A DNA stretch of 64,000 bases from Candidatus Omnitrophota bacterium (GCA_043821285.1 JBDRCZ010000017.1:15947-79946), one strand, 5' to 3'; shown: positions 7,479-64,000, counted from the stretch's first letter. The notes: generated from the sequence alone by a model not told the origin. A program made the numbers and translations.

Positions 7479-7522
7479 CGCAATACTCAATACTCAATAC
7501 TCAATACTTAATACGCGATACG
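7479..7522. repeat. tandem heptamer array (CAATACT)n between guaA and dnaE, with inverted partial copy at 7332-7364
   Basis: CGCAATACTCAATACTCAATACTCAATACTTAATACGCGATACG; left arm GTATTGCGTATCGAGCATTGCGTATTGCG is its approximate reverse complement. Confidence 0.6.
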
Positions 7523-29508: not shown

Positions 29509-29810
29509 TCCCCCCTTTGTACATGGTTTATTAGATTTTAACAGGATTAGAGGTGATTGTCAAGGATATATCGTGAAAAAGTAAGAAAAATCGTATTGTG
29601 TATTGAGTATTGTGGTTAAGAAATCTATCCACGAATGGTACAAAAAGCAGCGTTAATGACGAATGACGAAATCAGAACATTAAAATAAAAAACTCAAAAA
29701 AAGAAAATTAAATTTTAGCCACGAAATACACGAATCGCACGAAAAAAGAAAAGAGAATAAAAAGAAAAATATTTAACCACGAAGATCACGAAGTTTTTTT
29801 GTGAGAATAA

Positions 29811-29832
29811 TTTTTTGTCATAAGACAAAAAA
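29811..29832. terminator. palindromic terminator at 3' end of member A
   Basis: TTTTTTGTCATAAGACAAAAAA immediately 3' of the stop. Confidence 0.45.
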
Positions 29833-32820
29833 TTATATTGCTTGCTCTATAAATGTCAGGTTTTGGAATTGCGGTTTTGGAATTGCTGTTGTACTAGGGG
29901 GAAAATTAGGAAGTGGTGGATATCCAAAAAATTCTCTGGCAGTTGGATTTTGAATAGATTCAAAAGTAATCATACTTGGTGTCCCTCTATAAGTAGCTAT
30001 TTCTCCATTTAATTTTATTGTATTTTCATTATAATCATATGTAACAATTACCTGCAGTCTCTTACCTCTCTCTCCGCTTCTTGTGAGAACTAAGACGACA
30101 TTTAGTTCTGTAATTCTGCTTTGCATGGTATAAACTTGTATGCTTCCAATACTTTCAGGTATTTTAAGCTCTTTACTCCCAATTTTTTTACTCTCACTTA
30201 TAACTTCTTCTTCAATAATCTCTAAGCCTTCTGGCGCGTGAATTTCTCGTATCGCTTTCATCACTTCTTGCTTTAAATCTGGTGACAAATTTTGTACTAC
30301 TTCACTATTTTCTATAAATCTTATTTCCCTTGGATCAGTCCTCCGGCGTTCTTTGCCTTTTTTATCATCAAGTTCAAGAAATAGATATCCCCCGGTCGCG
30401 GAATTCCACGAAATCCTTGTTTGACCTTTATCATTGGCAGAAAAATTAATAGTAACATAGTTATTCGGACTGATTGTTAATATTGTTCCTTCACCAAATG
30501 ACGCGTGTTTCACCGTATCCCCTGCCCGCAATAGTGTTCCGTCAGGCAAAATAAGAGTAGGTCGAGCTAAGTTATTAATTACACTTCGTAACGCTATTTG
30601 TAGGTTTCCCTGGGAATTATTTTCAATATCAGGATAATTTTCAAAAAAGTCGTTTTGTGCCTTTTGTATTGCATTATAATGGCCTAATACTGAACAAATA
30701 GCTCCGTGATAGATGTATTCCTGGCGAATTAATGGATTATCCTGTTCACAAATTTGCCTTGATAACACTAAAGCCGGTTCAGGAAATAATTCGTTAAATT
30801 TCGCCTCACCTAAAATATTAATAATCTCTTGTTTTGTTTCTTCTGCATGTGAATAGAATTCAAGCACATAATCATCTTCTTGATTAAACACAACAGCATC
30901 AGTTACAATAATGCGTAATGGTATCTCACTTCCTGCAGTAGTATGCAAATACTTCCTTATTCTTTGTTCTATTTGTTCTATATCTTGCTTAAGATCATCA
31001 GTTTCATCGCGATACTGCCTATGGGAAAGATTATAGAGCATTTGTTTAAACGCACGGTCACCTTTGCGGATAAAGCCGCCTTCATTGTCTGTCGGATTAT
31101 TTTCTTTTGATCCTTCTCCTAATTCAGGAAGAAGGTGATATTGTTCAATTATTGCGGCTATTTCTTCAGGGTCATTTAGATTTCTGTTCCTAATTTTTTC
31201 ATAAACATCCGAATGCCAATTATCAATAGCATCACCTATAGCCTCATTTGACAACTCGCTACCTTGCGTTCGGGTAACTAAAAACATATACGATAATAAT
31301 GATAGTTTCATAGAATTTGGCAGAGTAGGTTCTTTGAGCATTTCTAATGGGGGTAACATACGGTTTTCTAAAACAGTTTTTACTTGTTCTGGAAAATCCT
31401 TCATAATAATAGGCCACAGCTTTAAAAAATTAACCAATGCTTCTTGATTTATTCTTTCAGGTGGAAACGCCTGGGAGTTTTTTTCAACTATTCTTTCTAT
31501 AAAATACAAAACTGCTCTGAGAGAGAAAATTTCTATGTTTGCATTTTGCGGAATTTCAACAGAAGAATTAACCCGTTCTCCATTAACAAGAATTATTGAT
31601 TTTTCAAAAGATAAGTCGTTTGCCTGGTATGTGGCTGAAATATAAGTAAGTAGTTCTGCTACAGTACTGCCTTTAGCAGGAATTCTAATTAATTCGTCAT
31701 TCCTACTGCCAATAAGTGAAGCAGAGATTCCTATTGTGTAAGGTAAAAGACAAACACTTATCCTTTCTTGATAAATTTGGCGTGTCTGTTTAGTTATAAT
31801 TATAGGTTTGCCAGCATTATCCCTTACTTCTACCCTACCCTCGTGTACGGCATGAAGAAGATTAAGAAAATCATCTGTGCTTTTAATTAAATTTTTATCT
31901 TTAGAAGCTAAATCATTCATAAGGCTAAGGGCATTAAGAAGATTTGCCCTATCATAAAGAGGAATCAAGCCTTCATTAATGCAGCGCTCGAGGTCTTCTG
32001 GTGTTTGAATAAATCTTGTATTAACATGAATCTCAAGTATCTTTTTAAGCGGGGCCCCGAGCGGTTCGTATTTACCAAAGATAAAGTTAAGCCCGCTTAT
32101 ATTATACATAGGAATATTCTTTGATATTCTAACTAAAGCATTACCGTATCCAATAAGACAGATTTTGGTCTCTTCAAAATCTTCTCTAGCGATTAAATCC
32201 TGAACCTGTATTAACCCCCTAAGCACCGCCTCTCTCCGAATATCTTGAATGTGTACTATTTCCTCGCGGATTTGCCGCATCGATCCTATCTTGCGCAAAA
32301 TTTGAGTTAATATTTTGGTATAAATTATAAAATGTAATAATTGGTCATCAGCTTCAACAATACCTTGTTTTTCCATTAAATACTGGATTAAAAATGCCCC
32401 ATGTTCAAACACATACTTGTCTTCATCAGAAACGCTATAAAATCTAACCAACCATTTATTAAGCGAACGCTTAAAAGACGATAAGGTATCAAAGCGTTGT
32501 ATAACATTTTTTGTTGCTAACAGGGCACTAAAGATAAGATTATGGATAATGTGACTAATGCCAGTTCTCTTGTTTTCTTGTAAAAGTTTATCAGCATCGA
32601 CTATTATTTTAGCTTCAGCAGATTCTTTTGCTAAAGTATCCGTTGCTTCGCCAGGATCACTAATATCTTTTGCAAAAATATCGCTATTTATGCTTAAGGG
32701 AGGGGCAAGATGGGTGTGTAGGCCTTTTAAATTGTTGCCGGCGGCCCAGGAGAGGTCGAGGCAGAAAAAAGCGTTAATTAGCATAATAACTGTTAGTTTA
32801 AACCAAATACTGCGTTTCAT
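29833..32820 (-). CDS. giant-array member A (995 aa): N-leader / C-terminal EQAI-tagged secreted or membrane protein
   Basis: N-term MKRSIWFKLTVIMLINAFFCLDLSWAAGNNLKGLHTHLAPPL; C-term ...NLTFIEQAI; no recognisable catalytic domain. Confidence 0.7.
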   Translation of the reverse strand: MKRSIWFKLTVIMLINAFFCLDLSWAAGNNLKGLHTHLAPPLSINSDIFAKDISDPGEATDTLAKESAEAKIIVDADKLLQENKRTGISHIIHNLIFSALLATKNVIQRFDTLSSFKRSLNKWLVRFYSVSDEDKYVFEHGAFLIQYLMEKQGIVEADDQLLHFIIYTKILTQILRKIGSMRQIREEIVHIQDIRREAVLRGLIQVQDLIAREDFEETKICLIGYGNALVRISKNIPMYNISGLNFIFGKYEPLGAPLKKILEIHVNTRFIQTPEDLERCINEGLIPLYDRANLLNALSLMNDLASKDKNLIKSTDDFLNLLHAVHEGRVEVRDNAGKPIIITKQTRQIYQERISVCLLPYTIGISASLIGSRNDELIRIPAKGSTVAELLTYISATYQANDLSFEKSIILVNGERVNSSVEIPQNANIEIFSLRAVLYFIERIVEKNSQAFPPERINQEALVNFLKLWPIIMKDFPEQVKTVLENRMLPPLEMLKEPTLPNSMKLSLLSYMFLVTRTQGSELSNEAIGDAIDNWHSDVYEKIRNRNLNDPEEIAAIIEQYHLLPELGEGSKENNPTDNEGGFIRKGDRAFKQMLYNLSHRQYRDETDDLKQDIEQIEQRIRKYLHTTAGSEIPLRIIVTDAVVFNQEDDYVLEFYSHAEETKQEIINILGEAKFNELFPEPALVLSRQICEQDNPLIRQEYIYHGAICSVLGHYNAIQKAQNDFFENYPDIENNSQGNLQIALRSVINNLARPTLILPDGTLLRAGDTVKHASFGEGTILTISPNNYVTINFSANDKGQTRISWNSATGGYLFLELDDKKGKERRRTDPREIRFIENSEVVQNLSPDLKQEVMKAIREIHAPEGLEIIEEEVISESKKIGSKELKIPESIGSIQVYTMQSRITELNVVLVLTRSGERGKRLQVIVTYDYNENTIKLNGEIATYRGTPSMITFESIQNPTAREFFGYPPLPNFPPSTTAIPKPQFQNLTFIEQAI

Positions 32821-33140
32821 ATTACATATATGCTTTCATTCTCGTATTGAGTATCGCGTATTAATGTTTTAAATTCGAAATCCGAATATCTAAATGTTTA
32901 GAATTTGCCATTCGTCATTATAAGTGTTTTATTTTATCTATCTAGTTGATCCTGTCTAATTCGTTCTCGTATTGCGTTTTTTTATTGTCGTCTACTTGTT
33001 TTTATACTCAATACTCGATACACAATACACAATGCGTTGTTTAATCATTTCTCTCCGTGTTCTCTGCGGCTCTGTGTGATAAATTTTAGCTTTTATTTTC
33101 TGTCTTCTGAATTCTGATTTCTGTTTTCTGCTGTTAACTG

Positions 33141-36100
33141 TTAGATTGCTTGCTCTGCTATAAATATATTAGGTACTGTTATTTCTCCGGCACTTGGTAT
33201 ATCTTCAAGTAATGTGTCCGGTGCAAATACATTTTCATTAGCAGGATTGGCTCTTGTGGCTATATCTTTAGCGTTTATAACACGTTGTGAGCGTCTGTCC
33301 TTATGAGCACTAGTGTCATTCGTTTCCTTTTGTAATTTTGCAAGAAGAACCGGATTATCTTTTATTTCACGGTGATTTTTGACGTTGGGAAAAAAACCTG
33401 TTGTCAGTTTTCTTGCGGCGGTTAAATCATCAACAGTTTGAATAATCATTCCTAATTCACCATTTAAATCTTCGCTATGAACAACACCAGCTTCTAATCT
33501 TACCTGCATGCCTAATTCTGAAATCACTTCATTAACTTTGATTTCGATCGCTTTCAAAGTAGCGGCAATTTTTTCCGAAGTAATTATCCCATCATCTTCT
33601 CTATAAGCTCCTGCAAATTGATTATAAACATTGTTATTAATTGATAGAATTACATCATTTCCAACATTGTGGCCAAATACATCATTAATAACCTTAAATC
33701 CAAAATGCAATTGTGCAAATTGTGCATCTCCATTTAAGTCTGTTTCTCTGTAAAACTCTCTGTTGCCGCTTGCTCTTATGAAATCATTTATATTTATGGA
33801 TGTAGAACTAACTATATAATGTGCTGATAGTTTTATCAGTTGTACACGGTTATTTTCTCTTTTTATAACGAGGTAGAACTTATCAGGCCGTTCATGTACA
33901 ATACTGATTGAAACAGCAGATTTGCCGTCTAAAATGTTTTGAATGGTTTTGCCCAACTTATCTCTTTCTATTACCGGGTAAAACTTGTCTAAATCTTCTT
34001 TCGAAATACCCGCATCTATCATTTCCTGACGTATTCTTTCTCCTTCAACTCCTAATTGAAATTTTTTATCGTCAGCTATTTTAATCGGTGATTTTCTCTC
34101 TTCGCGCTCAGGATCTGGGCGTTCGGATAATCCTATTCCTACTAACTTGTTGGCATATTTAGTCCTGCGCTGGGTGTATTCCGCCTCATCTCTAGCAATT
34201 CTTAGTTGTTCCAATAGACTCATTTGGGAAATATTAGGTATATCACTTATTTTTACTGCTCCTACCGGGGCAAAGGGAACATAAACAGGAAAATAAATCT
34301 TACCATTAATATCAATGTCAAGACATTTAAGATTAGCGAGTATCTCGGATAGAACAGTGTTTTCATCCTCTTCTACATCTTTAGTGAACAGTATAAATGT
34401 TTCCTTAGAAGCCTTTTCTTCTTCTGGCGTTAAAAATACTGATTTTGTGACCGTAGTAATGTTTCTTTTTTTATTTTCTCTTAATTTTTCTATCAACGCA
34501 TCTCTGTTACTATCATTTATATTTTTTAGGATTGCAAAAACGTATTTTCCTTCAATCCGTTCTATGACCTTGCGTTGAATTTGTACGAGAAAGTGCTCAA
34601 TAACTTCTTTTGGCAACATAGGTGGTAACAAACCAACAACCTCATCACCACTAACATGATAAACTGTTCTACCTCTTTCTTCAATTTCTTTACGAGCTGC
34701 CTCAATTAATGTGTTAATTGCAAGTATATTCACATTTTCCCAGCCATATACATCATTTCTACCCCTTAGTTCGCTGATGTCAAAGAATATCACCCAAGCA
34801 TTGTCGTCGTGTCTACCTAAAAATACCACTGCTTCTTTTTCCCATTTTTGTGCATTTTCTGGATAGGCTTCATTAAGAAAGTTTCTTACGCGTGTTGTAT
34901 TATCAAATAAAGTGGTTAAATACATTATAAACTCTTGCAGTTCGTTATAGGGTTCGTCAGTATCTTTTCTACTTAAAAGAACATCTATCACCTTAGTAGC
35001 CGCGTCCCTAAATTGCTGATCATTAATATTTTGGTTAATAATTTTTCTCCACTTCTCACCTAAACGCTTTATTTCAGCCTTCAGAAACATTTCTATTGCT
35101 TCCTCATCTTCGCCTTGTTCTTTACACCTATCTACTTCTAATATTACTTTTTCTACATCTGCGCCCAACTCAAAAGCAAAAAATTCCCCATCTCGTTCCT
35201 GACTGGAATTTTCTCTTGGCAAAATGCTTGCCATACCTAAGCTAAATGCTGCGATTAAACCTGCGGTTCCTCCTCCCATCCCTGATTGAAGCATTGATGC
35301 TGCGGAAAATTCTGGTTGAGATGGGAAATAACCAAGTGCTCGCATTAATGTTCCAATAGATGCTGCTAAAAGCACGATGGATATTTTAGGTTTATTTCCA
35401 AACCATGCAACTAACCTCCTAATTAGCGTACCTAACCTGTTCTCATGGGAAGGACTTTTGTTTAATGCCCTCCAACCAGTTGGATGCATAAATGCTACAT
35501 TAGTTGCTTTGCGTCTACGATGAAGAAGTCCGCTTATATTTGCAGGAAATATTATTTTTCTGCTTATCCACTTTTTTACCTCATAAGCAATATATATTAA
35601 TGTTAAAATTATGCCCAAACCAGGTATTACCATACAATCGCTAATAAAATTATTCCACTGTTTAACACGAGCATAACCTTCTCTTACAGTAAAACTATCA
35701 ATAAAAAACTCTTCTCCCATCGGTGGCATGATACCAAACTTAGCAATAAAATCTGCCTGGTTTTTAAATGCTTCTGTTGTTTCTGGATTGATATCAAAAA
35801 AAGGAATAACTAATCGAGCAATGTTAAAAATCAACGTTACTGGGTTATGTTTTATAAGAAATTCCATTGGGTTTTTAGGCAAATTATCGACATGATGACT
35901 TAAACGCACTAATGTAACAGCGTATTCAAAAATTCCTCGCTTAGTAAAGAAATTTAATCCAATATTAGGATTACCCCATGTTCCATTCCATCTTGAACCA
36001 TAGACAATATCAAAATTGCTTTCACGGATAGGTGGATTATTTGTCATAAGAATTTGGTAAGTTTCGGGAGAAACTAATTTTATCAAAAATAGCGCTGGTC

Positions 36101-39100
36101 CAATATGTTCTGCTCCTTCAGTTCCATCTCTTCGCTCAATAAAATCGTCCAACATGCCCGCAGCTTTATATTCATTGTAAAGTTTAATTACGGCTGTATC
36201 GATTTCCTGAGCTCTTTTTCGTGCTGTTGATTCTATAAATGATCCCGTGTTTTCATCAATTTTTGATGCAAGTGGAGAGTTTTGAAATGTTTCAATTAGA
36301 TTATGGAATTCATTTAAAGCTATTTGTAATTCTCCATTATTTTCTTGTAATGATACAGGTTGTGGTAATTCATTAAGTTTTAAACTGTCAGCTGGTGTTG
36401 GCTGTACTAATCCACTTTTTCCAACTGGTTCTAAAGATACAATGTTTAATGGTGCAGCAATTCCGATTGGTGCTAATATGGTCTGTGATCCGATAGCGAG
36501 GATAGTGAGTAAAGGCAATACTACCTTACGTGCAAAAGAGAAGTTAACACTGTGTTTAAAACCCCAGCCAAAAATAGCTAATCCTATCAGTCCTATTGCC
36601 GCAATTACAGCACCTGGCAAACCAAAAAATAACCCTGCAAACCCAATTGCCATAATTAACCCATCGATTGAAAGTGCTGTGGTTCCATTAGGTAACCTAC
36701 GGCTGGAATTATTATCCGGCGCAGTAATCTCTACATTATCTCCATGATTAAACGTCTGTTCTAAGTCTTCTACGCTTCTGGGCAAGCCGTTAACTTTTAA
36801 CACCAACTCCCCAGACTGGAGCATTTTTTGTGTGGTTAGGATGGCTTTGCGATTACGATCATTATAATAAGAAATCTGTGAAGTAATAGTCTTAATAAAT
36901 AAATATGCCAGCAGATCATAGATATTTGTTGCGGGAATCTGTTCTGCTGATATCAGTTCTCTAATACCATCTTGTTGACTATTACTGGCTTCTTTAGTTA
37001 TTGTTAATTGGATTAATGCTTTTTGTTCTTCTTCTTGCAATTTTTGAGTTTGCTGAGTTATTTCATCCTCTAAAAGAGCTAATCCAGCCCTATGCTGCTC
37101 TAAGATATCTTTTTCAGGATCAAATTCCCCTTCAGCACAAATTATTAACCCATTTGGCATAATATAGTAGACTATATTGAGATAGCCATGTGTGCTTTTG
37201 CCGATCATCAGTGAGTTTTTATTATTTAGCCAACCTTCGTACCTTTCCTTATGAAGCATAATTTGTTGGCTATGTGTATAATATCTTAACGTTGCATTAA
37301 TAAAACCTTGCGCATCGGCTTCCTCTTCTTTACGATAAGTAAGTGTTGTTCCATGCCCAATGAAACCATTTTTATAATGTTCAGGTAAGTTCTTCCATTC
37401 TTTGTTCAAACCACTTTCAATCCTTTGATGCAGTGATTTGTTTCCAGGAGCCGGTATGACACGTTCTGGCTCTGATGCTAATATCTCAAAGCTCGTGAAG
37501 GCATAAAAAATATTTTCTCTATCTGTCGCAATACCCATGCGTGTTTGACCCAAATTATCAGTTACTACCTGCCAGGTTGTTAATCCTATTTCTCGAGTAT
37601 ATGCAATTAGCGCCAGTTCGTATATTTCTTCTGTTAATAGTCCATCATTTACCATCCGCACAAAAAGCTTAAGAAATTCGTTGCTGTGATATATAAACCC
37701 GACCAATATTACTAAAGAAATTTTTCTTAATCTTTCTGTTGCGTTCTCTTCCTTTTTGAGTTTACAATAGATTGCTTCTATTGCAGTAACACAATCACTT
37801 TTGTATTCTGAGCCTATTGGATCGTCTTCTAACAAGATATTCCCTAATATCTGAACCGCGTATTCTGTTCCAATATCACCTAAAAGGTTTTTAACAGCCC
37901 TTAGGCGTAAGTAAAGCGGGTTAGTTTTATCATTCAACGCATTTGTCACAAGTTTTTCTGCAGGTTCACCAATTCCTCTTATAATCTCCTCACCAAGCAA
38001 AAGTAAGTTGGTTAAGTTCATATTAATTATATATCTATTTGGTTGTTGAATTAATGTTCTCATTCGCTTAATACAAGATTCAATCACATGTGCTCCCAAT
38101 ATCTCTTTCCTGCCAATTTCAACTAAATAGTCCTTTAAAAGTTCTTTTCTTATGTTAGCAAGCTCATAAGCTGAATGAAAAAATAAAATTATTAAACTAT
38201 CAGTTATTTTATCAACCATTTGTTTAATAATATTGTTTTGGTTTTCTGCTCTGGGATTTATTTTTAATGCATTGGCAATTTCAGTTATAAACTGTCTATC
38301 TCTATCTGATAATTCATCCTGTTGAATTCTATTGTATAAGACGAATAAATATCTTATAAAATAATTGAGTACCTCAATAACAGTTCTAAGAAAATCTAGT
38401 TCAGTTTCGTTAAATACTTCTTTTTTTTCAAATTTTTCCTGTGTCATTTGCTCAAATATTTCTTTTATCAATATAACCACTCGTATTTCATTACGTTCTT
38501 TAAGTATGTTAATAAGTAAACGTCTTATCCTCAGGTCAGAAGATTGAAGCACGTATTCTCTTATGTGGGGAAATGCCCGCTCGACAATATTACCTAACAC
38601 CGAAGAGGCAATTGTAACACGTGTTCCGCGATATATTAATCCCTGTTCACTTAATTCTGTAACAGCAGATTGAAGATTATCTTCTGATTTTTTTGCAATC
38701 TCCGTCAAAATATCAATAATCACATCTTGTTTTTTTTCTCCATGATCAAGCAGGTGCCGGATAGCTTTTACGCCAAACCCTTTAACCAAAATATCTTTAA
38801 TATCAGATGTTATTTCACGATCTTCACTATGAGCTGATAAGGCATCTGTTAAAAGGTCCATTGCCGTTGCAATTGTATCTTCATCTCTATTAGCAAATTC
38901 ACCAAGTTCAGCCATATTATCAGTACGTGAAGCGCGATCTCTATACGTAGCTAACTTATTAATCACATCCTGTATGTAAGCTCTCGTTGTACTATTATAA
39001 CTATTTCTATTGCTAAAATGCTTTGTTGTATCTTCTCCCGGATTGCCCCAATCTTGTAAACTAGAAAAAGGTAACTTTAATCCACCTATTCCGGCAAATG

Positions 39101-39581: not shown

Positions 39582-40421
39582 AAGTTAATAGCCTATCAGT
39601 TAATTCCAAATGTTCCGCCTATCAAACCGGCGGACAGGCAAATAATAAAATCCAAATGACAAATGAATCATTTAATATCTCAATCTAAAAATCAAAATGA
39701 TATATTAAAATTCAAATATTTTTCTCTTTGACAGGATTTACAGGATTAACATGATTTTTTATCCAGTTAATCCTGTCTATTTTCTTATTTTCTCTGTGAA
39801 CTTTGTGTTCTCTGTGGTTATAAATTTTTTTATTTTTTTTAATCGTAATACTCAATACATGCTACTCAATACGCATTACTTTTTATAGTGTGCTCTCTGT
39901 GGTTAAAATATTTTTTGTTTTTTTATCTACATAATCATCCGTATTCTACGCTCTCTTTTATATGCACTATTTTCATTACAATCATACATATTGTAACCGC
40001 TAATAATTACAATCTGTTAAATATATTTATAACAATTTTAATATATACAAGTAAAGTATACCATATTTTTCTGATTTTTCAAGGATTTTGCTAAAAAAAT
40101 ATAGAAAATAACAGATTAAAAGATTCAGGTGATCACGGTTTTAAAACAGTATCAAGGCATTATTTATAACTTATTTATTTATAATATATTATAAAATAAT
40201 TATCGAATATGCCTACATGTTAATTATTCGTGAAATTCGTGTAATTTGTTGTTTAAAAATAAGCAGTTAAAGTTTTTCTTTGTGTGATAAATTTTATTTT
40301 TTACCGCAGAGAAAATCTAAAAGAAATCTCGTTCACAGATGTATGTAAGTTACATCCACTTTCTATTCTTAGTGCGTTACGTAAACGGTAAACTGCCTGC
40401 CTCCCGTTAGGGAGGTAAACT

Positions 40422-40446
40422 AAAAAATTGCCATAGGCAATTTTTT
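40422..40446. terminator. palindromic A6-TTGCC-ATA-GGCAA-T6 terminator (bidirectional in form) at 3' end of member C, overlapping its stop codon
   Basis: AAAAAATTGCCATAGGCAATTTTTT; second hairpin CCTCCCGTTAGGGAGG at 40400-40415. Confidence 0.5.
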
Positions 40447-47536: not shown

Positions 47537-47855
47537 ATGTTAATACCCTGTTAGTTAATTCCAAATGTTCTAATTCAAGATTTAAAAATTCCAAGATTCC
47601 AGATTCTAAAATTATAAAATTCCCCGCTACAAGGTCGAAGATCCGCCATCGTATTAGTGAAGAACGCTGGCGAACAGGCAAATTCTCTAACCTTCGGCAA
47701 GTAAAACGTTTTGAATCGTTAAATCTTAAAATATTCAAATTTTGGAATTGTTTGTTTTATTCTTCTGTCTTCTATTCTCTACCTTCTGTTTTCTGCTTTC
47801 AATCAGCTGTATCAGTAAACGGTAAACTGCCTGCCTTCCATTAGGGAGGTAAACT

Positions 47856-47879
47856 AAAAAATTGCCGCAGCAATTTTTT
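47856..47879. terminator. palindromic terminator at 3' end of member D
   Basis: AAAAAATTGCCGCAGCAATTTTTT; adjacent CCTTCCATTAGGGAGG. Confidence 0.5.
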
Positions 47880-53553: not shown

Positions 53554-53752
53554 GATTTGTAGATATGTTTATCCATTCCAGATTTTAAAATTCCCCGCCA
53601 TAATGCGTTGACAGGCAGATTCAAAATTTAAATATTTTCTTTGAAACAAGTGTCACATGATTAATCTGATTTTTTATCCTTCTTTATCCTATTAATCCTG
53701 TCTATTTTTTCTGCTTTTTTGTCTTCCAAATTCTGACTTCTGTTTTCTATCA

Positions 53753-55231
53753 CAGTACTTTGTTAAAAATCAGGTCTTTTCAAAAAAATCATTTACGTAA
53801 GTCGTGAAAACTCATAACTTATGTAATTTCAATACTTTACGTTAATTTTTTCCTTGACAATATCCACAACTCCTGCTATGGTATATAGTTGTAATCAAAC
53901 CACCGTAACACACAACAGGAGGTGGATATGGGTATTTTTAATCTCACTATTTCGGTAATCAATAATTTCTTATTTCGTTTTAAACCTGCCTTCTCAAAAA
54001 AACAATTTATCGTTTTCTCCTTCCTGATCTATGCTTTGTTTAAAGACTACAAGAGAAATTCCCTTTATGCCCTCGCCTCTAAAACTCCAATCAACTATCA
54101 GGCTTGTCAGTACTTCTTATCTGAAGGAAAATGGAGTATCGATGATCTTAATAATATAAGGTTAAAAATTATTGAACATCAAAGAACTACTTCTGCTACT
54201 TCCTCCGGCGTCTTAGTTATTGATGATACTTCTCCTAAGCCTTTTGCTAAAGCTACCGCCGGTGCTAAACGTCAACACTGTGGTGTCTTAAATCGTGAAG
54301 AAATCTGTAATGTTGCTGTATTCTCTGCCTTCGCCTCCAAAACTAAACGCTTCCCGATAAACCTTAAATCTTATCTCCCCGCTGAAAAATTCTTATTTGG
54401 CAAAGAGGATGTAGATTTTAAAAGTAAGCTCGATCTTGCCCAAATATTAGTCGATGATGCCTTAGAAAGAAAAATTAAATTCTCTTCCCTCGTCATAGAT
54501 GCATGGTATGCTCAGTCTTCACAATTCCTTGAGTTTGTTCACTGCCAGAGAAAACTGCCCTTCATTGGTGAATTAAAGTCCAATCGTAACATCTTCTTTT
54601 ACCATCCGCTAAAGCGGAAACACTGCTGGATCCAGCAGGATGAGCTGGTGAAACTCATCAAAAAACATTATCCGCATAAGTGTAGGTTTTTTACCTCCAC
54701 GAGCAAAGATGGTAAGAAGAAGTCTTGGGTCTTCTACACCTTCAAGGGACTGCTGAAAGATTGTTCTGTTCCCTTAAGCATAGTGGTGATCTTTGGTAAG
54801 TGGGATAATCAGGATGATAAGAATGTTCATATCCTTATCTCCAATCAGACCCGCCTGGCTACTAAGACCATCATTTCCACCTACCTGCTTCGTTGGGGAA
54901 TAGAGCTTATCTTCAGGGAGCTCAAGGATGTCTTCTCCTTTGACCAATACCAGGTTAGACATACCAAACAGATCGAACGTTACTAGACACTATGCCTTAT
55001 TGCATGGAGCCTGTTATATTGGGTCAAACAAAATGCCTATCTTACCAAAATCCTTGAGCATAAACCTGCTACCTTCTATGACTACAAACAGGCCATTGAC
55101 TCCTTACTCCTTTATGATGCTCATCAGTCTCTTTCAAAGAACAGTCATCTTGCTCAGAAATATTTTAAAATTAAATCGGATAATTTTAAACAGCAAATCG
55201 CTCGCGTTGCCTGATTTTTAACAAAGTCCTG
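53753..55231 (+). mobile_element. IS4/IS701-family insertion sequence (~1.48 kb) with 22-bp imperfect TIRs and 8-bp TSD TTCTATCA
   Basis: IRL CAGTACTTTGTTAAAAATCAGG vs reverse complement of IRR (CAGGACTTTGTTAAAAATCAGG); direct repeat TTCTATCA at 53745-53752 and 55232-55239; DDE transposase ORF inside. Confidence 0.75.
53922..55221 (+). pseudogene. IS4/IS701-family DDE transposase interrupted by in-frame TAG (codon at 54984-54986)
   Basis: LVIDDTSPKP, LVIDAWYAQS, RWGIELIFRELK catalytic motifs. ORF stops 19 aa after the E motif and a conserved-looking hydrophobic tail (LCLIAWSLLYW...) continues in-frame after TAG. Confidence 0.55.
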
Positions 55232-55287
55232 TTCTATCATTTAAAACATATAGTAGACAGCAAACTGTACACTGTAAACGGTAAACT

Positions 55288-55312
55288 AAAAATTGCCGAT
55301 GGCAATTTTTTT
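55288..55312. terminator. palindromic terminator at 3' end of member E
   Basis: AAAAATTGCCGATGGCAATTTTTTT. Confidence 0.5.
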
Positions 55313-58300
55313 AGATTGCCTGTTCCACGGCCAAAACCGTATTCAATCCTACTCCTTCAAGTAGCGGAAGTAAAGACATCAATTTCTGCATAGGCTTTTC
55401 ACCCTGCTGTCTGCAACCATCTGGAGTGTCTTTTCTTTCTCCATCTTCCATGAAACTCTGAGAAGCTAAATATCTCATTAGTTCTCCTGTTTGATTAGGA
55501 TTGGTTACTCTTACTATCGTAATATTTTCAACTTTAAGAACTAATCGATCATTACCTCCACTCCAAAATTCATCACCAATATATATGTCAGCTGCTGCAT
55601 CTATTACAGCCGCGGCTTTATCTTCTAAGTTTTCAGTATGTTCTTCTACAAAATCTCCCATTTTTTCATCATAGATGAATTTATGATACCCCGGTTCAGA
55701 GGATATGGTATAAAGAACAAGATTTTTTAATAAACCCTGCTTATCTTTCGGGATAGCAAATAATACCTGGCCTTTTACATTAAATATGTTTCCGCCAGTA
55801 ATTATTCTTAGCTTATATCCAACCTCAAGTAAGTTAAGGAATGCATCCAGATTATCTTCTCCGATTATTCCCCAGTAAGGAACAAGTGTGCCATCCATAT
55901 CTATTCCTATAACCTGAATTTCTTCTAACGGTACATGGCCATTTATAATATCATGGACATTTAATGGAGTATTTTGGGTTGTATCTACTGGGGATAGCGT
56001 GCCAAGTGTTTGTTTTGGGACAAAACTGTTTTCTTGCTCACGCTTTGCTATAAATTTACGGTGTGCAAGGACAATAAAGGTAGAAAGTGCAAGACCTTTA
56101 CCCTGCAATTCTTCTACTGTTTCACGGTTATCTTTAAGCTGCGGATCTAAATATGCCGCCAATAATTGCATAAGCAAAGGTTCATTAAGTAATAAATCTA
56201 CTCCCACGTTAACTTCTTGATAAAGTTTTTTTGCCTTTACATAGTCTGAAAAAAGTTCTCCTAATAACGAGGATTCATTGGTTAATTCCGCATACAAATT
56301 ATCGAATATTTCTTCTACAGATATTAATATATCATTGTACATTTCATCAGAAAGATGGCTTCTTAAAAATTCTTCTTGTTCTTGTACTTTCCACGGAGGT
56401 AGATATTTACTTCTCAAACCGTATTGATTTAAACATTGCTCTAACTTATAAAAGATTATTTGTTCAAGAACACTCTCATTATCAACTTTACTGATCAAAT
56501 TTTCTGGCAAGCGGTTTTTAATAAGATTTTTAAGCAGTGTACCAGTCGCCGATGTACTCAATCCGGTTCCATCAGCAAGTGAGTTTGGTGTCCATTCAAA
56601 AGGCAGCCATTCTGACACAACTATTCCGTGAAGATACTCTCTTCCAAAAGATATTCTTCCTCTTGTTCCTAAACCAAAAGTGTGAAGTTGAATGCCAAAT
56701 TGTTCGTTAAGCTTAGCATTTGTAACAGTGGAAGAGTCAGAATTTTTAAGAAGAGCAGCGAAATGTGCTTCAACCTCTGCTAATGAATCAAGCAAACACC
56801 TTGCTTTATGAAGAGTTACACCAGTTTCAACAATATCATCAATTATAAGAACGTTGCGGTGTTCTCTGAGATACTCGACGACCTTTGTATCATTTAGAAA
56901 TAACCGCAGGTCTTCAGGAGAATCTAAAGAGTATACATCTCTTTCAAAACCCAAACGCACCCTTTCAGCTTCTGTCAATAATGACCAAATTATTGTTGTT
57001 AAATTTAACTTTTGAGTAATAATCCAACTTTGGAATTCAGGTATTTCCTTATTAAATAAGTTATTCGCTTTTAACTGAGTAAGCAAAATTTCCAATGCTT
57101 TGGCAATTGGATCAGCTCCTTTTGAGGGAAAGATAACTAAATTTATATCGTGTTGGATTAAATATTTAACAATAGGAAGAAGTATAGGAGCAAATTGCAA
57201 AACTTGTATGTCTGTTCCTAAAGAATCTATGTCTCCAATTTCTTCACCTAATGCAGCTTCGACCGCCTGCCGAAGCTTTCCAGTATATCTGGAGCGATAA
57301 GGACTACGCAGATATCCTTCAATCGTTGGCAAGTTTTTTGCGATCTCCTTTTCAAGCTCTTCTTCAGCCCTCAAAAACATCTGATGCCCTGTTTCTGTCC
57401 TGAATAAAGTTTCACCCAGAAAATTGCCGTCATCTTTGCCTGATTTTTCATAAAGTCTATACTCTTCTTCAAGGCGCTCTTTATTAGTTTTAAATCTGGC
57501 TCGGATCTGTTCAGGTGTTATTTCTATTCCCGCAGCTTCTAAATCAGCAATAATCCCTTGATAAGTACACATAAATAATCTGTCTGCCTCACGCCATACT
57601 GTTATTAATCTATAAAAAGAAGAAGCATTAGCAAAAGGCCCTTCAAAATTAAACAAAAACTGTCCTTTTTCATATAAAGAAGTATCAACACCCATATTTC
57701 TAAGCTCTACTAAGGCCTGTTCAATAGAAGGATTATCATGAGCTTTTACCACACCACAGATTAAATTTACATTTACATCAGTTGCACTTAAAATACCGGT
57801 TGAAATTAATTGTTGGATTAATTCCCTAATCATTTCGGGGGCTTTTTTCATATGCGCAAGCCTAAACGCGATTGTGTTCTGCGCTAATTCTTTTGCCTTT
57901 AACGAATTTCTCTGTTCAATTTTCTTGCGTATTTGAATAATTCTTGCCCGTGAGCCTTCTAACTTGGCGTACCCAATATCATGTAATAAGGCTAATATTG
58001 CTGCGTTTTTAAATTCTTCATAGGTAAAATCTTCTCCTAATCCAATCTGCACCGCGTTCTCTAAGACTTGAGTATGATGATTTACAGGGTTGCCATTTGC
58101 TCCAGCTTTAAAATGAGGTAAGGCGCTCCAAAAAAGTGTGAAGAGAATATTTTGAATTTCTTGTTTTTGCTGGTCTGTAAATGTGCGGTCTTTTTCAATG
58201 CGGCTTAGTGCATTTTCCAAATTCTGAACTGCTAAACTTTTCTTACACTGAACAAGATAGTAGCCATTCTTTTCTTCAATTACTGCTTCTAATCCATTGT

Positions 58301-59036
58301 CTGTAAGAAATTGTTCAAATTCTGCTTTATTAGAAAAACTAAATCGACCACGTCCAGCGTTTATTGGTTCGGCAATCAATATTTCACCTTCTGAACTAAC
58401 TGCCCGAATATACTCCTTTAATAACTGATCACGTTCTTCACGATTACTAAACATGGTAAAGAACCGAATGCTGACCACTTTAGAAAAACTTCCGTCTTTA
58501 AACCGCATGTCCAAGGCACTGGCTTTTACCAAATCAACATTTTTGCTATCTTGCTTTCTATTTTGAGCAATGTTAAGTAAAATTTCATTGGTATCTAACC
58601 CTGTTATATGTTTGCAAAATTGAGAAATATAAAAAGTGAAATGTCCGGAACCACAACCTATTTCTAAAACTTCATCATCATTATCAATATTAGCTTCAAG
58701 CCAGTCTTTAGGGAAGTCTACAAGATAAGATGCAAGCGTACGATCATAAAAATAGGAAAAATATATCTTTTTGAGCCAATCAACGAGTCTTTCAGTCCAA
58801 GACCTGTGAGGAGAAATATCTCGTGTATCGTTAGGCAGCTTTAGCTGAGTTATATTTATTGTTTCTGCAACGTGTTCTTTAAGAATAGAATTATTTATTT
58901 GCAAAGGCGGAGCAAGGTGGGTGGACAAATTTTTTAAATTACCATTAGCAGCCCAGGAAATATCTAAGCATAAAAAGGCGTTAATTAATATAATCGCTGT
59001 TAGTTTGAATAATATATTTTTTTTAATGTTCAACAT
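55311..59036 (-). CDS. giant-array member E (1241 aa): leader + class I SAM-methyltransferase + HD phosphohydrolase + type I phosphoribosyltransferase + HAD hydrolase domains, EQAI tail
   Basis: LEIGCGSGHF (MTase motif I); VNHHT...LLHDIGY (HD); NVLIIDDIVETGVTL (PRTase); VIGIDMDGTL...GDEFWSGGND (HAD motifs I/IV); N-term MLNIKKNILFKLTAIILINAFLCLDISWAANGNLKNLSTHLAPPL; C-term ...LAVEQAI. Confidence 0.75.
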   Translation of the reverse strand: MLNIKKNILFKLTAIILINAFLCLDISWAANGNLKNLSTHLAPPLQINNSILKEHVAETINITQLKLPNDTRDISPHRSWTERLVDWLKKIYFSYFYDRTLASYLVDFPKDWLEANIDNDDEVLEIGCGSGHFTFYISQFCKHITGLDTNEILLNIAQNRKQDSKNVDLVKASALDMRFKDGSFSKVVSIRFFTMFSNREERDQLLKEYIRAVSSEGEILIAEPINAGRGRFSFSNKAEFEQFLTDNGLEAVIEEKNGYYLVQCKKSLAVQNLENALSRIEKDRTFTDQQKQEIQNILFTLFWSALPHFKAGANGNPVNHHTQVLENAVQIGLGEDFTYEEFKNAAILALLHDIGYAKLEGSRARIIQIRKKIEQRNSLKAKELAQNTIAFRLAHMKKAPEMIRELIQQLISTGILSATDVNVNLICGVVKAHDNPSIEQALVELRNMGVDTSLYEKGQFLFNFEGPFANASSFYRLITVWREADRLFMCTYQGIIADLEAAGIEITPEQIRARFKTNKERLEEEYRLYEKSGKDDGNFLGETLFRTETGHQMFLRAEEELEKEIAKNLPTIEGYLRSPYRSRYTGKLRQAVEAALGEEIGDIDSLGTDIQVLQFAPILLPIVKYLIQHDINLVIFPSKGADPIAKALEILLTQLKANNLFNKEIPEFQSWIITQKLNLTTIIWSLLTEAERVRLGFERDVYSLDSPEDLRLFLNDTKVVEYLREHRNVLIIDDIVETGVTLHKARCLLDSLAEVEAHFAALLKNSDSSTVTNAKLNEQFGIQLHTFGLGTRGRISFGREYLHGIVVSEWLPFEWTPNSLADGTGLSTSATGTLLKNLIKNRLPENLISKVDNESVLEQIIFYKLEQCLNQYGLRSKYLPPWKVQEQEEFLRSHLSDEMYNDILISVEEIFDNLYAELTNESSLLGELFSDYVKAKKLYQEVNVGVDLLLNEPLLMQLLAAYLDPQLKDNRETVEELQGKGLALSTFIVLAHRKFIAKREQENSFVPKQTLGTLSPVDTTQNTPLNVHDIINGHVPLEEIQVIGIDMDGTLVPYWGIIGEDNLDAFLNLLEVGYKLRIITGGNIFNVKGQVLFAIPKDKQGLLKNLVLYTISSEPGYHKFIYDEKMGDFVEEHTENLEDKAAAVIDAAADIYIGDEFWSGGNDRLVLKVENITIVRVTNPNQTGELMRYLASQSFMEDGERKDTPDGCRQQGEKPMQKLMSLLPLLEGVGLNTVLAVEQAI

Positions 59037-59935
59037 AATAAATATCTCCAGTTATTTAATTTTAAATGTCCCGCCTATCAAACCGGCGACAGGCAAATGA
59101 ATCATTAAATAATTCAATCTTTAAAATTTATTTATGTAATTTGTGTGATTTGTTGTTAATAAAATAAGTACTTGAAATCTTTCTTTGTGTGCTCCGTGTC
59201 TCTGTGTGACAAATCTAATATTTTTGTTTCGCTTGTCCGCCGTGCTCTGTTTGGCGGGTCATTCTGGTTTCGTTATTCGTTATTAAATTATCCTGTCTAT
59301 CATCCACAATGATTGGCGGATCTTCAATTTTTTATATTTTCTCTGTGAACTTTGCGAGCTCTGTGGTGATAAATTTTTTATTTTTTTTTACCGCGATACT
59401 CAATACTCATTGCTTTTTATAGTGTGCGCTCTGTGATGATAATTTTTGTTTTGTTTTTTTAGCCACAATGCTCAATACACAATACCCGATACTTAATCAT
59501 ATTACTTTTCATAATGCCTTGTTATAAATAAATTTATAACATCTTTTAAATAGTTTTATAAGTATACCATATAATTACGCAATTTTCAAGGGTTTGGGGA
59601 AATTTTTTTTGATTTTGTGATTTCTATGCTTATTGTTTTAACTATTTGGTATTAAAAAAGATATGGCATAGAAAATTAACAACAGCATTATTTAGGCAAG
59701 AATTGATTATATTTTTATTAAAGAAATAAATTGTAAGAGAAAATAATTATTACGATTAGATTTTATTGATTCTAAAATTTTAAATAAATTTTAACTTTAT
59801 TTTTCACCACAGAAAACACTGAGCCCACAAAGAAAAACTTGATACAAATCATACAAATATTTACATGCATAGCCTTCTTCCGTATAATCTGATTCTGCCT
59901 GCCTCCGGTAGGACGGTAAACAGTAAACGGTTAAC

Positions 59936-59960
59936 AAAAAGTTGCCATAGGCAACTTTTT
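59936..59960. terminator. palindromic terminator at 3' end of member F
   Basis: AAAAAGTTGCCATAGGCAACTTTTT. Confidence 0.5.
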
Positions 59961-62900
59961 AAATTGCCTGTTCTATAGCATACACCATATCTAATTCAAA
60001 CAAGTTAATCTCTGGCGCATCATCCGGTTGAGATACAATCATTAGAGCAGTGCTTGGTTTTATAGGAGGATTATTTTGATCTAACTCATCTGGGTCATTG
60101 CGGAAAGACCCATATTCATCTTCGCTCCAGGGATAACAATATATTGAAGTTCCCCCATCCTTTTTTTTCTCAAGAAGACCGTATTCTGATAATCGATTAA
60201 GAACTGTCCTTACCCTGTCTGTGCCCATATATCTATAATTGCGGAATTCATCTCTCAATACCTCAGCAACCTCTGATGCTTTAAACTCCCTACCGTTAGC
60301 AAAATTCGCCCAGACTGTACGAAGTATAACTTTTTCATTACCGGGCTGATTGTTCTCCTGTAGTGTAATATTGTCCCAGTAAGATAAATATGATTGGTCA
60401 AATTCCTCTTTTGACAAATCCCGCAATTCCCGTTTATGTTCTTGGTCAATTGCTGCCATCTCACGATATACAATGCATTTGTTTAAGTGTGCGAGTGACA
60501 GCAATAACGGCACATTTTTTATCTGCCCCTTGTTTATTCTTTGCGTTTCTGATATTCTTAAAATCTGTTTATAATATTCTATTGTTTTGTCATAACACGA
60601 TAGTGCTTTTATATATTCTTCTTTATCATTTTGCTCAAAACCATTTTCCGCATATTCAGCGCCTTCTTCAGCATACCATGCAGCTGCTTCTGTAAAAATA
60701 TCTACTGCACCAGCAAAATATTTTTCCTTAATATATTTACTAGCTAACGCTTTATAAACATTAGCGGACATTGGCATACTGCTATCTGGATAAAATTGTT
60801 TTCCTGTTGACTGGTTACTAGTTCTCGTGTGTGATGGTATTATCATTCTTGCAGGTGTGCTACTTTGGGGAGAAACTCCATTATATGTTGTATCAAAACC
60901 CCTAGTATATGCGAATTGCCATTTTTGTGGTATGATATTTCGTAATACCTCCGCGATAAAGGCAGGTGGGGTTAAAATCCAATTTGCTACCTTGATTAAG
61001 GCTTCAGAATATCTTTTACCTTCTAATTTATCCTCCATCCATTTTAGTACTGTAGCGCGCTGCCAGAAGCCAAGATATTCTCCAAAGAAATAGAAAAATA
61101 CTACTGCTGCCCATCCTCCCACACCCGCCAGGTCAAAAGGTATAATTAAACGGCCCGCACCTCTATTTCTGAGTCTATCTTGTATAACAAAATGCGGCAG
61201 TGGGACATTAAACCTTAATATCTGCCTTTCTCTACTTAATATTAAATCAGCATTGCCTAAATTTGCTTTACCGATAACTTCATCTATAATACTCCTCACA
61301 ATCACTTTTTCTCGATTATTACACCCGCGGTAAATCGCTCTAAAATATTCTCTTAGTAGAGAACGGATCATTATAAGCTGAACATTGTCTTGTCTTATGT
61401 ATACTTCAGCAGCTGAACGTACTGCTATTTCAAGTGCTTCTTGTTTGTGCGCTGGCAATATTCTGTATGTCTGATTAGCCACTGTGCCCCTATCTTGTGT
61501 GACATAAGGGGCTATCACTTTAAAAAGTACATGCCGTGCATCTGCTTGAGAAAGATATACTAATCCTTTTAATGTGTCATCCATGACCGCTTTAGTTAAC
61601 GGGTGTTGTCCTGGATTTTGAATAGAACTGTAAATTCTAGCGATAATTTCTATATTAATTCTCTCTATAGGTGTAGAATCTATTTTAAATTCATAGCTTC
61701 CTACATCGTCTTTTCTAACGGTCTGCACAATTTCATTTACTTTTTGAATAATCTCTTGTCTTTCATCTTTTAAAAGGCCTATATCTTCTCTTGATAAAAA
61801 GCTTGCTAAAAACTCCAGTTCTAATGCTTGCTGAAGAGCATTTTCTGGAGAAAAATTATTAATCCCTTGTTTAAGAGCATCCATCATGGAAACTTCTAAG
61901 TTTATACCAGGGCGATAAGTGTGTAAAAAAAACCTTTTGATATTGATAAATTCTGGCAAAAGAATAACCTCTTTAGTGTCTAAATTTATAGTCTCATTTA
62001 TAGTTTCTTCTAATATAGAGCTAAACGGGCGAAGAAGTACTAATCTTTCATAAAGAGTCTCATCTGAATGAAAAAATGTTAAATAGATCACAAGTCTTAA
62101 ATAATAATCCGCCAGAAAAACACCATCTACAGTAAACTCTATGTTACCATCTTTATCTCTACGGCTTACAGTTAAACATTTGTACAAAAAATTATCTATC
62201 TCTGTAAGCATCCGATATAAGATTTCCATCGCGGTTTCTGTATTCTGTTCTAAGGCAAGCTCAAGAACATTAGTGACATTTGAGAAATCTTGCAAAACAA
62301 CATATTCTTTAAGAACACCCCATAGACTATCAAACAACTCATGGTCTTCACGATGATAAGCAAATGCAGCCAGGCCAACAAATGACGCTAAGTTTGCTTT
62401 TAAATTTAAACCGGTATTTATCAAATAGCTTATTTCCTTTTCTATATAAATGAGTATAATTTTAGAAACATCACCTCCGGCAATAAAGGTATAAACAATC
62501 ACTGCAAAAAGGGCGTCGTGTAATTCCTCATCTTCCGGAGATATATTTAATCGTTGAAGTATTTCAGCCAACACTGCTATTACCATATCAATTTCTTCGA
62601 TATTATCTTGTATATGCACGCGCATTTTATTAATAAAAAATACCAAAACATGGCGAAGTTCATTTTTTAGATGACTGTCCAATTTTTCCCAGTCTCCTTC
62701 TTCCGTTTCTGTTAAACTTTGTATTTCAGCTTGGACACGGTCTAATTCTTCATTCAACGAGTTTATTCTTTCTGTATTTGAAGGGGCCGGACTTCTCTGT
62801 CTCTGTCTTTGTCTCTGCCGCCTTGAGCTTCTTGGTTCTGACCTACGCTGTAAGTTTTGTATTTCCCGGGTAATCTCTTGCTCTCGCCCTTTCAGCGCCG

Positions 62901-64000: not shown

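Follow-up and report, generated by a model that had tools for sequence, protein, structure and literature searches.

Why do six neighboring large genes, most of them unrelated in their interiors, begin and end in the same way? The question is raised by a stretch of 64,000 nucleotides (the window, in the following), which is part of a metagenome-assembled genome (MAG) deposited at NCBI as "Candidatus Omnitrophota" (GCA_043821285.1, JBDRCZ010000017.1:15947-79946; locus prefix ABH952). The genes, here named A to F, are all located on the minus strand at positions 29833-64000. A first-pass annotation of the DNA had noted that they share an N-terminal leader and a C-terminal tail, and had suspected a dedicated sorting or processing system. 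Here, we show that the pairing of leader and tail is a family trait, explained neither by chance nor by assembly artefact, and we discuss it as a lineage-specific, two-ended sorting or docking tag, a reading to which we give about an even chance.

Six large genes with common ends

Translation and alignment of the six genes confirm that five carry nearly the same leader and that all six carry the same tail. The complete genes encode proteins of 995 to 2363 amino acids (aa). Gene A (29833-32820, 995 aa, ABH952_01575) contains an orphan cargo without internal hydrophobic segments between the leader and the tail. Gene B (33141-39581, 2146 aa) has several internal hydrophobic segments and a degenerate GGDEF-like stretch near residue 1962, and gene C (40445-47536, 2363 aa, MFH1776244.1, ABH952_01585, on a contig of 85,997 bp) likewise has internal hydrophobic segments and no Pfam domain. 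In gene D (47878-53553, 1891 aa), the leader is followed by an unknown region of about 580 aa, a hydrophobic hairpin at residues 611-672 and two tandem transketolase units. Gene E (55311-59036, 1241 aa) encodes an S-adenosylmethionine (SAM) methyltransferase with additional weak matches to phosphoribosyltransferase and HAD domains, and no internal hydrophobic segment. Gene F (59959 to beyond 64000, at least 1346 aa) shares a homologous region with C and has SNAP/TPR-like and winged-helix matches in addition to the tail. Since the frame of F has no stop codon up to base 63999, its N-terminus lies beyond the window.

The codons visible in the window sum to 9,982, falling just short of the more than 10,000 first reported. 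The six genes are arranged head-to-tail as described, but the run is not uninterrupted: the 1.76-kb spacer between D and E contains an open reading frame (ORF) for an insertion sequence (IS) transposase (DDE_5/DDE_Tnp_1, 53922-54986, plus strand) that stands outside the tag system. The interiors had been called dissimilar, and this holds for most gene pairs, which have only the leader in common (53-89% identity in an all-against-all BLASTP comparison) and are otherwise unrelated. It does not hold for C and F, which share a region of about 590 aa at 36% identity, corresponding to residues 1734-2297 of C. A search of the PDB sequences identified no relatives of A, B or C. Genes A and C have no relatives in Pfam, and the sole match to A among 5.8e9 proteins was A itself.

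Both ends are specific to the array within the window. Only the six array genes end in [AS]I among the 96 stop-to-stop ORFs of at least 80 codons, and the leader core motif occurs five times in the six-frame translation, every time as the leader of an array gene.

Leader and tail are coupled across Omnitrophota

Word-indexed searches with a leader profile returned only short fragments, the first match being a single Omnitrophota protein of 67 aa, and it was therefore necessary to search exhaustively. The HMMER search with the leader, of the kind that the first-pass annotation had proposed, covered 1.84 billion cluster representatives at a cut-off of E<=1e-3 and identified 66 leader-bearing representatives of 67 to 6278 aa. 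Their leader always begins at residue 1, and the [AS]-I ending is present on 41. The other 25 representatives are mostly short, consistent with fragments, while only two are annotated as partial. The hits P0001-P0022 belong to the same MAG as the window and come from at least 10 of its contigs; their accession numbers are often consecutive. This MAG contains at least 23 leader-tagged genes, about 30,000 codons in total.

Scans of public genomes and metagenomes with the leader subtype of the source MAG gave no matches, whereas patterns from a broader leader alignment located arrays of tagged genes in at least 12 further assemblies from NCBI, JGI and Logan. All named hits are Omnitrophota MAGs, except for one that is labelled Planctomycetia. 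In the first batch of loci fetched (numbered with the prefix L below), the tail is present on 28 of the 32 leader ORFs and on 9 of 214 other ORFs (Fisher p = 6e-25), and five of these nine leaderless ORFs are large ORFs with their 5' end cut by the edge of the locus. The second batch contained 11 leader ORFs that are complete and not duplicates, and each of them has the tail. The linkage first proposed from the array thus extends to the whole family. Altogether, 68 unique proteins of 152 to 6278 aa combine leader and tail, and a giant protein of 9199 aa also ends in ..VNNAI.

One of the loci, L010, contains a 273-aa leader ORF without a tail (9980-10801), followed by a leaderless 539-aa ORF ending in ..FVGRSI (10937-12556); the two probably represent one tagged gene, interrupted by a frameshift or by an error in sequencing. 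The locus with the label "uncultured Planctomycetia bacterium" (L007, contig CAYTGV010000010.1) has the typical arrangement of a giant gene, a PilZ gene, a tagged gene, and genes for a major facilitator superfamily (MFS) transporter and glycoside hydrolases (GH), and it probably derives from an Omnitrophota MAG that was assigned to the wrong taxon.

The leader and the N-box

The leaders of A-E align across about 48 aa, with 23 invariant columns, and the conserved N-terminal module reaches about 65 aa, and is thus longer than the 45 aa or so first assigned to it. The leader of A (aa 1-46, 32683-32820) reads MKRSIWFKLTVIMLINAFFCLDLSWA/AGNNLKGLHTHLAPPL, where the slash marks the putative cleavage site. 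The leaders of B (39435-39581) and C (47390-47536), both aa 1-49, are 89% identical in DNA sequence, including 34 nucleotides 5' of the ATG, and the B leader is a member of a DNA repeat family. The leaders of D (53407-53553) and E (58890-59036), also aa 1-49, have the forms N-S-NLKNLSTHLSP and N-G-NLKNLSTHLAP, respectively. The alignment thus recovers the two subtypes recognized earlier, A/B/C and D/E, and D and E also have the ending LAVEQAI in common.

The consensus of 74 aligned leaders is M-x-x-L-x-[KR]-x-Φ-x-F10-[KR]11-x-I13-[AS]-x-[IV]-L17-I18-[NQH]19-[AS]-F21-L-x-L24-D25-I-[AS]27-W28-A29-[AG]30-G-G, in which Φ is a hydrophobic residue. A basic residue is found at position 11 in 70/74 sequences, F21 in 73/74, D25 in 70/74, W28 in 62/74 and A29 in 70/74. 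After 6-15 variable residues follows a second conserved element, the N-box, L41-[AS]42-P43-x-Φ45-x-[IL]47, with L41 present in 72/74 and P43 in 60/74 of the sequences. As judged from the sequence, the leader has the geometry expected of a substrate for Sec and signal peptidase I, in agreement with its first description as export-like: a basic n-region, a hydrophobic core of about 12 residues, I-x-x-[IV]-L-I-[NQH]-[AS]-F-L-x-L, and a c-region of 5-6 residues, D-I-[AS]-W-A before [AG]-G, which places small residues at -3 and -1 of the putative cleavage site after [SA]-W-A. The mean number of lysine and arginine residues is 2.0 on the N-terminal side of the core and 1.1 after it. In an AlphaFold2 (AF2) model of the smallest member, a protein of 152 aa, leader residues 3-29 form one confident helix, and the segment after the N-box is also modelled as a helix (pLDDT ~81).

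The conservation of the leader goes far beyond what Sec or a generic signal peptide requires, with F21, D25 and L41 being near-invariant. The control, ordinary secreted proteins from these loci, showed unrelated signal peptides and lacked the tail. The leader is not a lipoprotein signal for signal peptidase II, as its sole cysteine (position 23, F-L-C-L-D) is present in only 27/74 sequences and is located 6 residues before the A-x-A site. It is not a Tat signal, with one basic residue before the core and no RR, nor a type IV prepilin or class III signal, with no G-F-x-x-x-E and with the G-G placed after the hydrophobic segment. The isolated leaders matched no Pfam or NCBIfam model at E<=10. 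Resemblances of the N-box and cleavage region to PTS2, the TonB box and the LapG site hold in one subfamily only and were dropped.

The C-terminal tail

The tail was first described as a pentapeptide-like motif. It is indeed present on all six array proteins, but it extends over eight residues, Φ-x-Φ-[IV]-E-[QR]-[AS]-I with a free carboxyl group, where position -4 may also be G or D. It corresponds to the last eight codons and the TAA in A (29833-29859, FIEQAI) and B (33141-33167, IAEQAI), and to the same interval in C (40445-40471, EIERAI), D (47878-47904, AVEQAI), E (55311-55337, AVEQAI) and F (59959-59985, AIEQAI). In the 41 tailed representatives, the last residue is isoleucine in 41/41, preceded by alanine (33) or serine (8) at -2, and by glutamine (20) or arginine (9) at -3. 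Position -4 is glutamic acid in 24 and otherwise glycine or aspartic acid, position -5 is isoleucine or valine in 36/41, and positions -6 and -8 are occupied by L/F/A/I and L/I/V, respectively. In several members, a low-complexity or charged linker precedes the tail, which is modelled by AF2 as a short helix with low confidence in the 152-aa protein. The isolated tails (the last 42-53 aa) matched no Pfam or NCBIfam model at E<=10.

In five of the six genes, a hairpin with an A-tract, a stem and a U-tract starts at the TAA (A, 29811-29835; C, 40422-40447; D, 47855-47880; E, 55288-55313; F, 59936-59961). These hairpins are symmetric and would resemble a terminator on both strands. Gene B has no hairpin after its tail, and B and A may therefore be co-transcribed. 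The tail codons vary synonymously within the array (gag/gaa, caa/cag, ata/atc/att, with cgg also used for arginine). Because of this variation, and because B retains the tail without the hairpin, we conclude that selection acts on the tail at the level of the peptide. The possibility that the tail is a by-product of an RNA element was ruled out on the same grounds, and also because the hairpin is ordinary and the minimum-energy folds skip the tail codons.

Cargo and membrane topology

The proteins between the two ends are highly diverse. The transketolase units of gene D are located at residues ~677-1307 and ~1310-1850; the first keeps the GDG...N motif for thiamine diphosphate (TPP), while the second is without the GDG. 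Elsewhere, the tagged cargo includes phosphoglycerate kinase (PGK), guanylate kinase, an M50 protease, methyltransferases, an SF1 helicase, phosphoglucose isomerase (PGI) and pyruvate phosphate dikinase (PPDK), as well as ROK/PHP, CofD and HATPase_c domains. Small members of 152-460 aa contain one domain or none. Since unrelated domains sit behind the tag and the smallest members hold one domain or none, the tag is modular and the cargo exchangeable. A crude hydropathy scan identified 31/68 members without a strong internal hydrophobic segment, including A, E and the PPDK protein P0057. The idea that the giants are concatenated modules of leader, cargo and tail was ruled out, as no significant internal leader matches were found in any of the large proteins.

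Giant genes, PilZ and other neighbors

In five loci (L001, L002, L003, L007 and L011), runs of one to five tagged genes are located directly downstream of a giant gene and a small PilZ gene, and upstream of genes for an MFS transporter, GH2_C-type glycosidases and two small secreted proteins. Counted over the loci, PilZ is a neighbor in 9, MFS in 7 and GH in 9. The giants include the protein of 9199 aa mentioned above and another of 6877 aa that contains SecA-like domains (SecA_DEAD, SecA_PP_bind, P-loop_SecA) and ends in ..VESAA. Arrays also occur in other settings, with four tagged genes in a row in L022, three in L023 and five in L024. Published giant-gene loci have genes resembling those of type II secretion systems and type IV pili (T2SS/T4P) upstream of the giants and pilZ downstream (bioRxiv 10.1101/2023.11.21.568195; PMC10066038).

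The largest gene in the window is 7.1 kb, and the window contains only a lone PilZ-GspE ATPase gene and no MFS/GH block, the region upstream of F being outside the window. A small canonical PilZ protein is encoded 12 kb from the array (16739-17125, plus strand) and is homologous to the PilZ proteins that flank arrays or giants in 8 other fetched loci, so that a link to the regulation of the array is possible. Its gene abuts a GAF-HD_5 (HD-GYP-like) gene at 17125-18621 (plus strand), and a matching pair of PilZ and PAS-HD_5 genes is located immediately upstream of the tagged array in L023 (214-2503). As further context, a second PilZ domain in the window is fused to a type II/IV secretion ATPase of the GspE/PilB type (11321-12718, plus strand). 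Both PilZ domains keep the canonical RxxxR and [DN]xSxxG motifs, and to judge from its domain composition, the fusion would tie the sensing of cyclic diguanylate (c-di-GMP) directly to a GspE/PilB-type motor.

Repeats and mobile elements in the window

Short heptamers in tandem (GTATTGN/CAATACT, TTTCTGA, ATACACA) occupy many of the spacers between genes, throughout the window and not only in the array (7333-7362, 7481-7521, 29593-29614, 33004-33033, 33097-33130 and 59464-59492), with blocks common to the array spacers. They may represent sites for a regulator or a class of repeats found genome-wide. The terminators of C and D are each followed closely by a block of 65 nucleotides (40381-40445 and 47815-47879, respectively); the two blocks are 89% identical and contain a CCTCCC-N4-GGGAGG palindrome. 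An IS200-like Y1 transposase is encoded near the array (27148-27954, minus strand), and homologs are located beside tagged genes in L007 (8891-9529), L010 (4763-5086) and L013 (11625-12314); these transposases may be linked to the palindromic intergenic repeats. Consensus scans for promoters and terminators gave counts that were not clearly above those of shuffled controls. The only Rfam match in the window is a tRNA gene (973-1044, plus strand), which overlaps the last 10 bases of a ThiC ORF (86-982).

A proposed shared handling step and its alternatives

The two motifs are tightly coupled and independent of the cargo, the leader has a signal-peptide-like geometry, and the tagged genes recur in a particular locus context. 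We infer from this a lineage-specific, two-ended tag for sorting or docking. A tagged protein starts with a putative Sec-type signal peptide of 28-30 residues and nearly fixed sequence, followed by the mature N-terminal box L-[AS]-P-x-Φ-x-[IL] and a short helix. Next comes the exchangeable cargo of 0.1 to >9 thousand amino acids (kaa), often with cytoplasmic-type enzyme domains and with 0 to ~12 membrane segments, and finally, often after a low-complexity or charged linker, the 8-mer Φ-x-Φ-[IV]-[E/G/D]-[Q/R/E]-[A/S]-I with its free carboxylate. The leader would deliver the chain to SecYEG, and signal peptidase I would cut after [SA]-W-A. The N-box at the new N-terminus and the tail at the C-terminus would then be recognized by a common factor of the envelope, specific to the lineage, by which the tagged proteins and the giants of the same loci are together sorted, docked or retained, and this handling may be under c-di-GMP/PilZ control. 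In general terms, the tag probably marks proteins for one shared handling step in the cell envelope.

Several results weigh against this proposal. No candidate reader (PDZ, TPR, peptidase or secretin) is adjacent to the array in the window or consistent across the loci, and no partner peptidase or transporter was found for the tag. A SurA-like PPIase in L024 was considered as a reader and found unconvincing, as it sits in an apparent housekeeping gene order, presumably the conserved surA-pdxA-rsmA order; a secreted TPR protein was also unconvincing, since it recurs in only two loci. Two approaches to the location of the tail in members with multiple transmembrane (TM) segments pointed clearly to neither face of the membrane: a crude hydropathy count of internal segments gave even numbers in 31 cases and odd numbers in 11, and tests of the lysine and arginine content flanking the first and the last internal segments were not significant (p = 0.68 and 0.30). 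The AF2 model of the 152-aa member has no confident fold, contact or packing of the two ends (pTM 0.25). Much of the cargo would need ATP, SAM, phosphoribosyl pyrophosphate (PRPP), GTP or TPP, and is ill-suited to a Sec-exported location. This includes E and the PPDK protein P0057, which have no internal membrane segment.

Because much of the cargo depends on cytoplasmic cofactors, even in members with no hydrophobic segment other than the leader, two alternatives in which the enzymes work in a cytoplasm have to be weighed. The tagged proteins may form a membrane-tethered array of enzymes without any secretion, in which the leader serves as an anchor, the catalytic domains face the cytoplasm between the membrane segments, and the C-terminal helix docks on a common hub, for instance a PilZ adaptor or one of the giants, so that the assembly would amount to a giant protein divided into parts. 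The central-metabolism and nucleotide-dependent enzymes among the cargo, the internal hydrophobic segments of many members, the PGK domain of P0022 (581-824) between predicted segments, the cytoplasmic PilZ genes as the most constant neighbors and the short helix modelled for the tail all agree with this, and multi-enzyme giants with many membrane helices have been described (bioRxiv 10.64898/2026.06.07.730766). However, nearly half of the members (31/68) are without a strong internal segment, and given the basic residues on the N-side of their leader, all of their cargo would be expected to cross the membrane. Furthermore, the conserved [SA]-W-A / G-G resembles a cleavage site rather than an anchor, and there are no internal leader-like modules that would point to the fission of a giant protein. 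We consider a tethered array unlikely, while giving it serious weight. The cytoplasm might instead be that of a prey or host cell, with the apparatus of the giant-gene loci (the SecA-like domains in the giants and the T2SS/T4P-like genes upstream of them) moving the enzymes as effectors across both membranes. Here, the leader and the N-box would provide specificity for the motor or conduit, and the tail would be a signal for release or retention. Cytoplasmic-type enzymes would suit the cytoplasm of a target, arrays are located directly downstream of giants, one of which has the SecA_DEAD, SecA_PP_bind and P-loop_SecA domains, and the window itself encodes a PilZ-GspE-type ATPase. The literature also describes a distinct SecA clade in the giants, upstream T2SS-like loci and a predatory or epibiotic lifestyle of the phylum (bioRxiv 10.1101/2023.11.21.568195; PMC10066038). 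Yet Sec would integrate the membrane segments of many members into the membrane of the producer itself, the giants carry the same tag, no secretin, pseudopilin or SecA-like domain is encoded beside the window array, and PGI, PGK and transketolase would be unusual effectors, so that we regard export into another cell as decidedly improbable.

The common ends may also be an evolutionary residue, serving as homology arms through which paralogues exchange cassettes or undergo gene conversion, with a generic leader and a tail that determines stability or quality control, for example as a degron for a tail-specific protease or ClpXP. This would account for the 89% DNA identity of the B and C leaders, including the 34 upstream nucleotides, for the leader subtype and tail that D and E share despite their non-homologous cargo, and for an apolar C-terminus that ends in A-I. 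The explanation is weakened because the motifs hold across genomes at the protein level, in at least 12 assemblies with diverged DNA and cargo. Nor do the synonymous differences between the tail codons, or the near-invariance of F21, D25 and L41 beyond the needs of a generic signal peptide, fit such a residue, and it would be costly to keep a degron on the giants of related loci and on 23 or more large proteins of a single MAG; we give this explanation only a slim chance. Practically negligible, finally, is the chance that collapsed repeats or chimeric contigs have created the pattern in assembly or annotation. Although the source is a short-read MAG with repeated leaders, the leader copies in the window have diverged to 63-89% DNA identity, the ORFs are unbroken over 1-2.4 kaa, and the same architecture is found in more than 12 independent assemblies from NCBI, JGI and Logan. 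The first-pass annotation had named an artefact as a possible refutation, and these results argue against it.

A more far-reaching form of the two-ended tag, which we hold to be quite unlikely, is that leader, N-box and tail mark the substrates of an unrecognized Omnitrophota envelope route for the export or assembly of unfolded chains of 1 to >9 kaa. The N-box would be caught at the Sec exit by an outer conduit, such as an apparatus of giant proteins or of the T2SS-like kind, and the tail would serve as a retention or release signal. If true, this would be a new pair of secretion signal and secretion system, building a "coat" or delivering enzymes to prey. In a more exotic variant, the tagged proteins would be joined head-to-tail through the G-G N-terminus and a short C-terminal leaving peptide.

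How giant and large mosaic proteins are produced, exported and organized is an open question in the Omnitrophota reports cited here. A short, searchable tag on at least 68 proteins, giants included, makes it possible to count the whole set of substrates in any genome. It also provides a route to the machinery, since the reader can be sought by phylogenetic profiling, and localization can be tested. The presence of central-metabolism enzymes (transketolase, PGK, PGI and PPDK) behind an export-type leader is a puzzle, and their export, if it occurs, would bear on the question of whether these ultra-small epibionts carry out chemistry beyond their cytoplasm or within a partner cell.

Comparison with known systems

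The first-pass annotation had left open whether gene arrays of this kind are already catalogued. The gene class is known: it belongs to the large and giant mosaic genes of Omnitrophota and the published "giant gene locus" (bioRxiv 10.1101/2023.11.21.568195; bioRxiv 10.64898/2026.06.07.730766; PMC10066038), and the cargo fits the published "multi-enzyme metabolic" class of long proteins in the second of these sources. The searched passages of these sources make no mention of a shared leader, N-box or C-terminal motif. Nor was a description of the tag found in further literature searching, in Pfam or in NCBIfam, and the two-ended tag appears to be undescribed.

Like the published loci of the "Archaeovorin", dockerin and multi-enzyme types, the tagged genes belong to the phylum Omnitrophota and encode large mosaic proteins with signal peptides (SP) or TM segments and enzyme-rich cargo. 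The related tagged loci sit in the exact arrangement of a giant-gene locus, with an adjacent small pilZ gene and downstream sugar transporter and glycosidase genes, and the giants in them have the same tail. In contrast, the window has no single giant but six genes of middle size (1-2.4 kaa), and no adjacent MFS/GH genes or T2SS-like locus. Of the features that characterize a giant-gene locus (West-Roberts et al. 2023), the window genes show the phylum and the very large mosaic SP/TM proteins, while a gene of >20 kb, an adjacent pilZ, a T2SS-like locus and sugar/glycosidase genes are present in L001-L003, L007 and L011.

The absence of a match to any named family, claimed at first with PEP-CTERM, LPXTG, T9SS, T1SS/RTX and Tat in mind, also stands for the Pfam and NCBIfam models searched with either end. 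The tail is not the C-terminal domain (CTD) of type IX secretion system (T9SS) substrates, as only about 8 residues are conserved and the last 42-53 aa matched no CTD model. Substrates of type I secretion systems (T1SS) are without an N-terminal signal peptide, and the tagged proteins, with their signal-peptide-like leader and no RTX or HemolysinCabind hits, do not belong to the T1SS/RTX group. Neither is the tail the beta-signal of an outer-membrane protein (OMP), with a terminal isoleucine in all 41 tailed representatives and a cargo of enzyme or helical domains.

Specialized signals near the cleavage site are found in the accessory-Sec substrates (KxYKxGKxW and the AST domain), in the extended signal peptide region (ESPR) of large autotransporters, in the N22 segment of the curli protein CsgA and in the TonB box. 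The tag is similar to these in having a conserved signal peptide and/or a motif after the cleavage site that would route large or special substrates. It differs from them in that there is no sequence similarity, the leader has a normal length, and features of SecA2/SecY2, CsgG or a TonB-dependent barrel were not found. Signals that depend on a free carboxylate include the YxF of OMPs, read by the PDZ domains of DegS/DegP, the apolar tails read by Prc/Tsp, the PTS1 signal SKL read by the TPR domain of Pex5, and the Dxxx of T1SS proteases. Here, the likeness is in the conserved last residues with their carboxylate, the variable linker before them and the hydrophobic final residue, while the 8-mer of the tail fits none of their consensus sequences and ends in isoleucine rather than an aromatic residue.

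There is also a likeness in architecture to the LPXTG/sortase, PEP-CTERM/exosortase and GlyGly-CTERM/rhombosortase systems, which combine an N-terminal signal with a short C-terminal signature on unrelated proteins and are lineage-restricted. Their C-terminal signals are tripartite, with a motif, a membrane helix and a basic tail, whereas the Omnitrophota proteins end at the motif, with nothing after the isoleucine, no hydrophobic helix, no NCBIfam hit and no sortase-like partner seen. The tag would belong with the sorting tags that pair a signal peptide with a C-terminal signature, in a new form.

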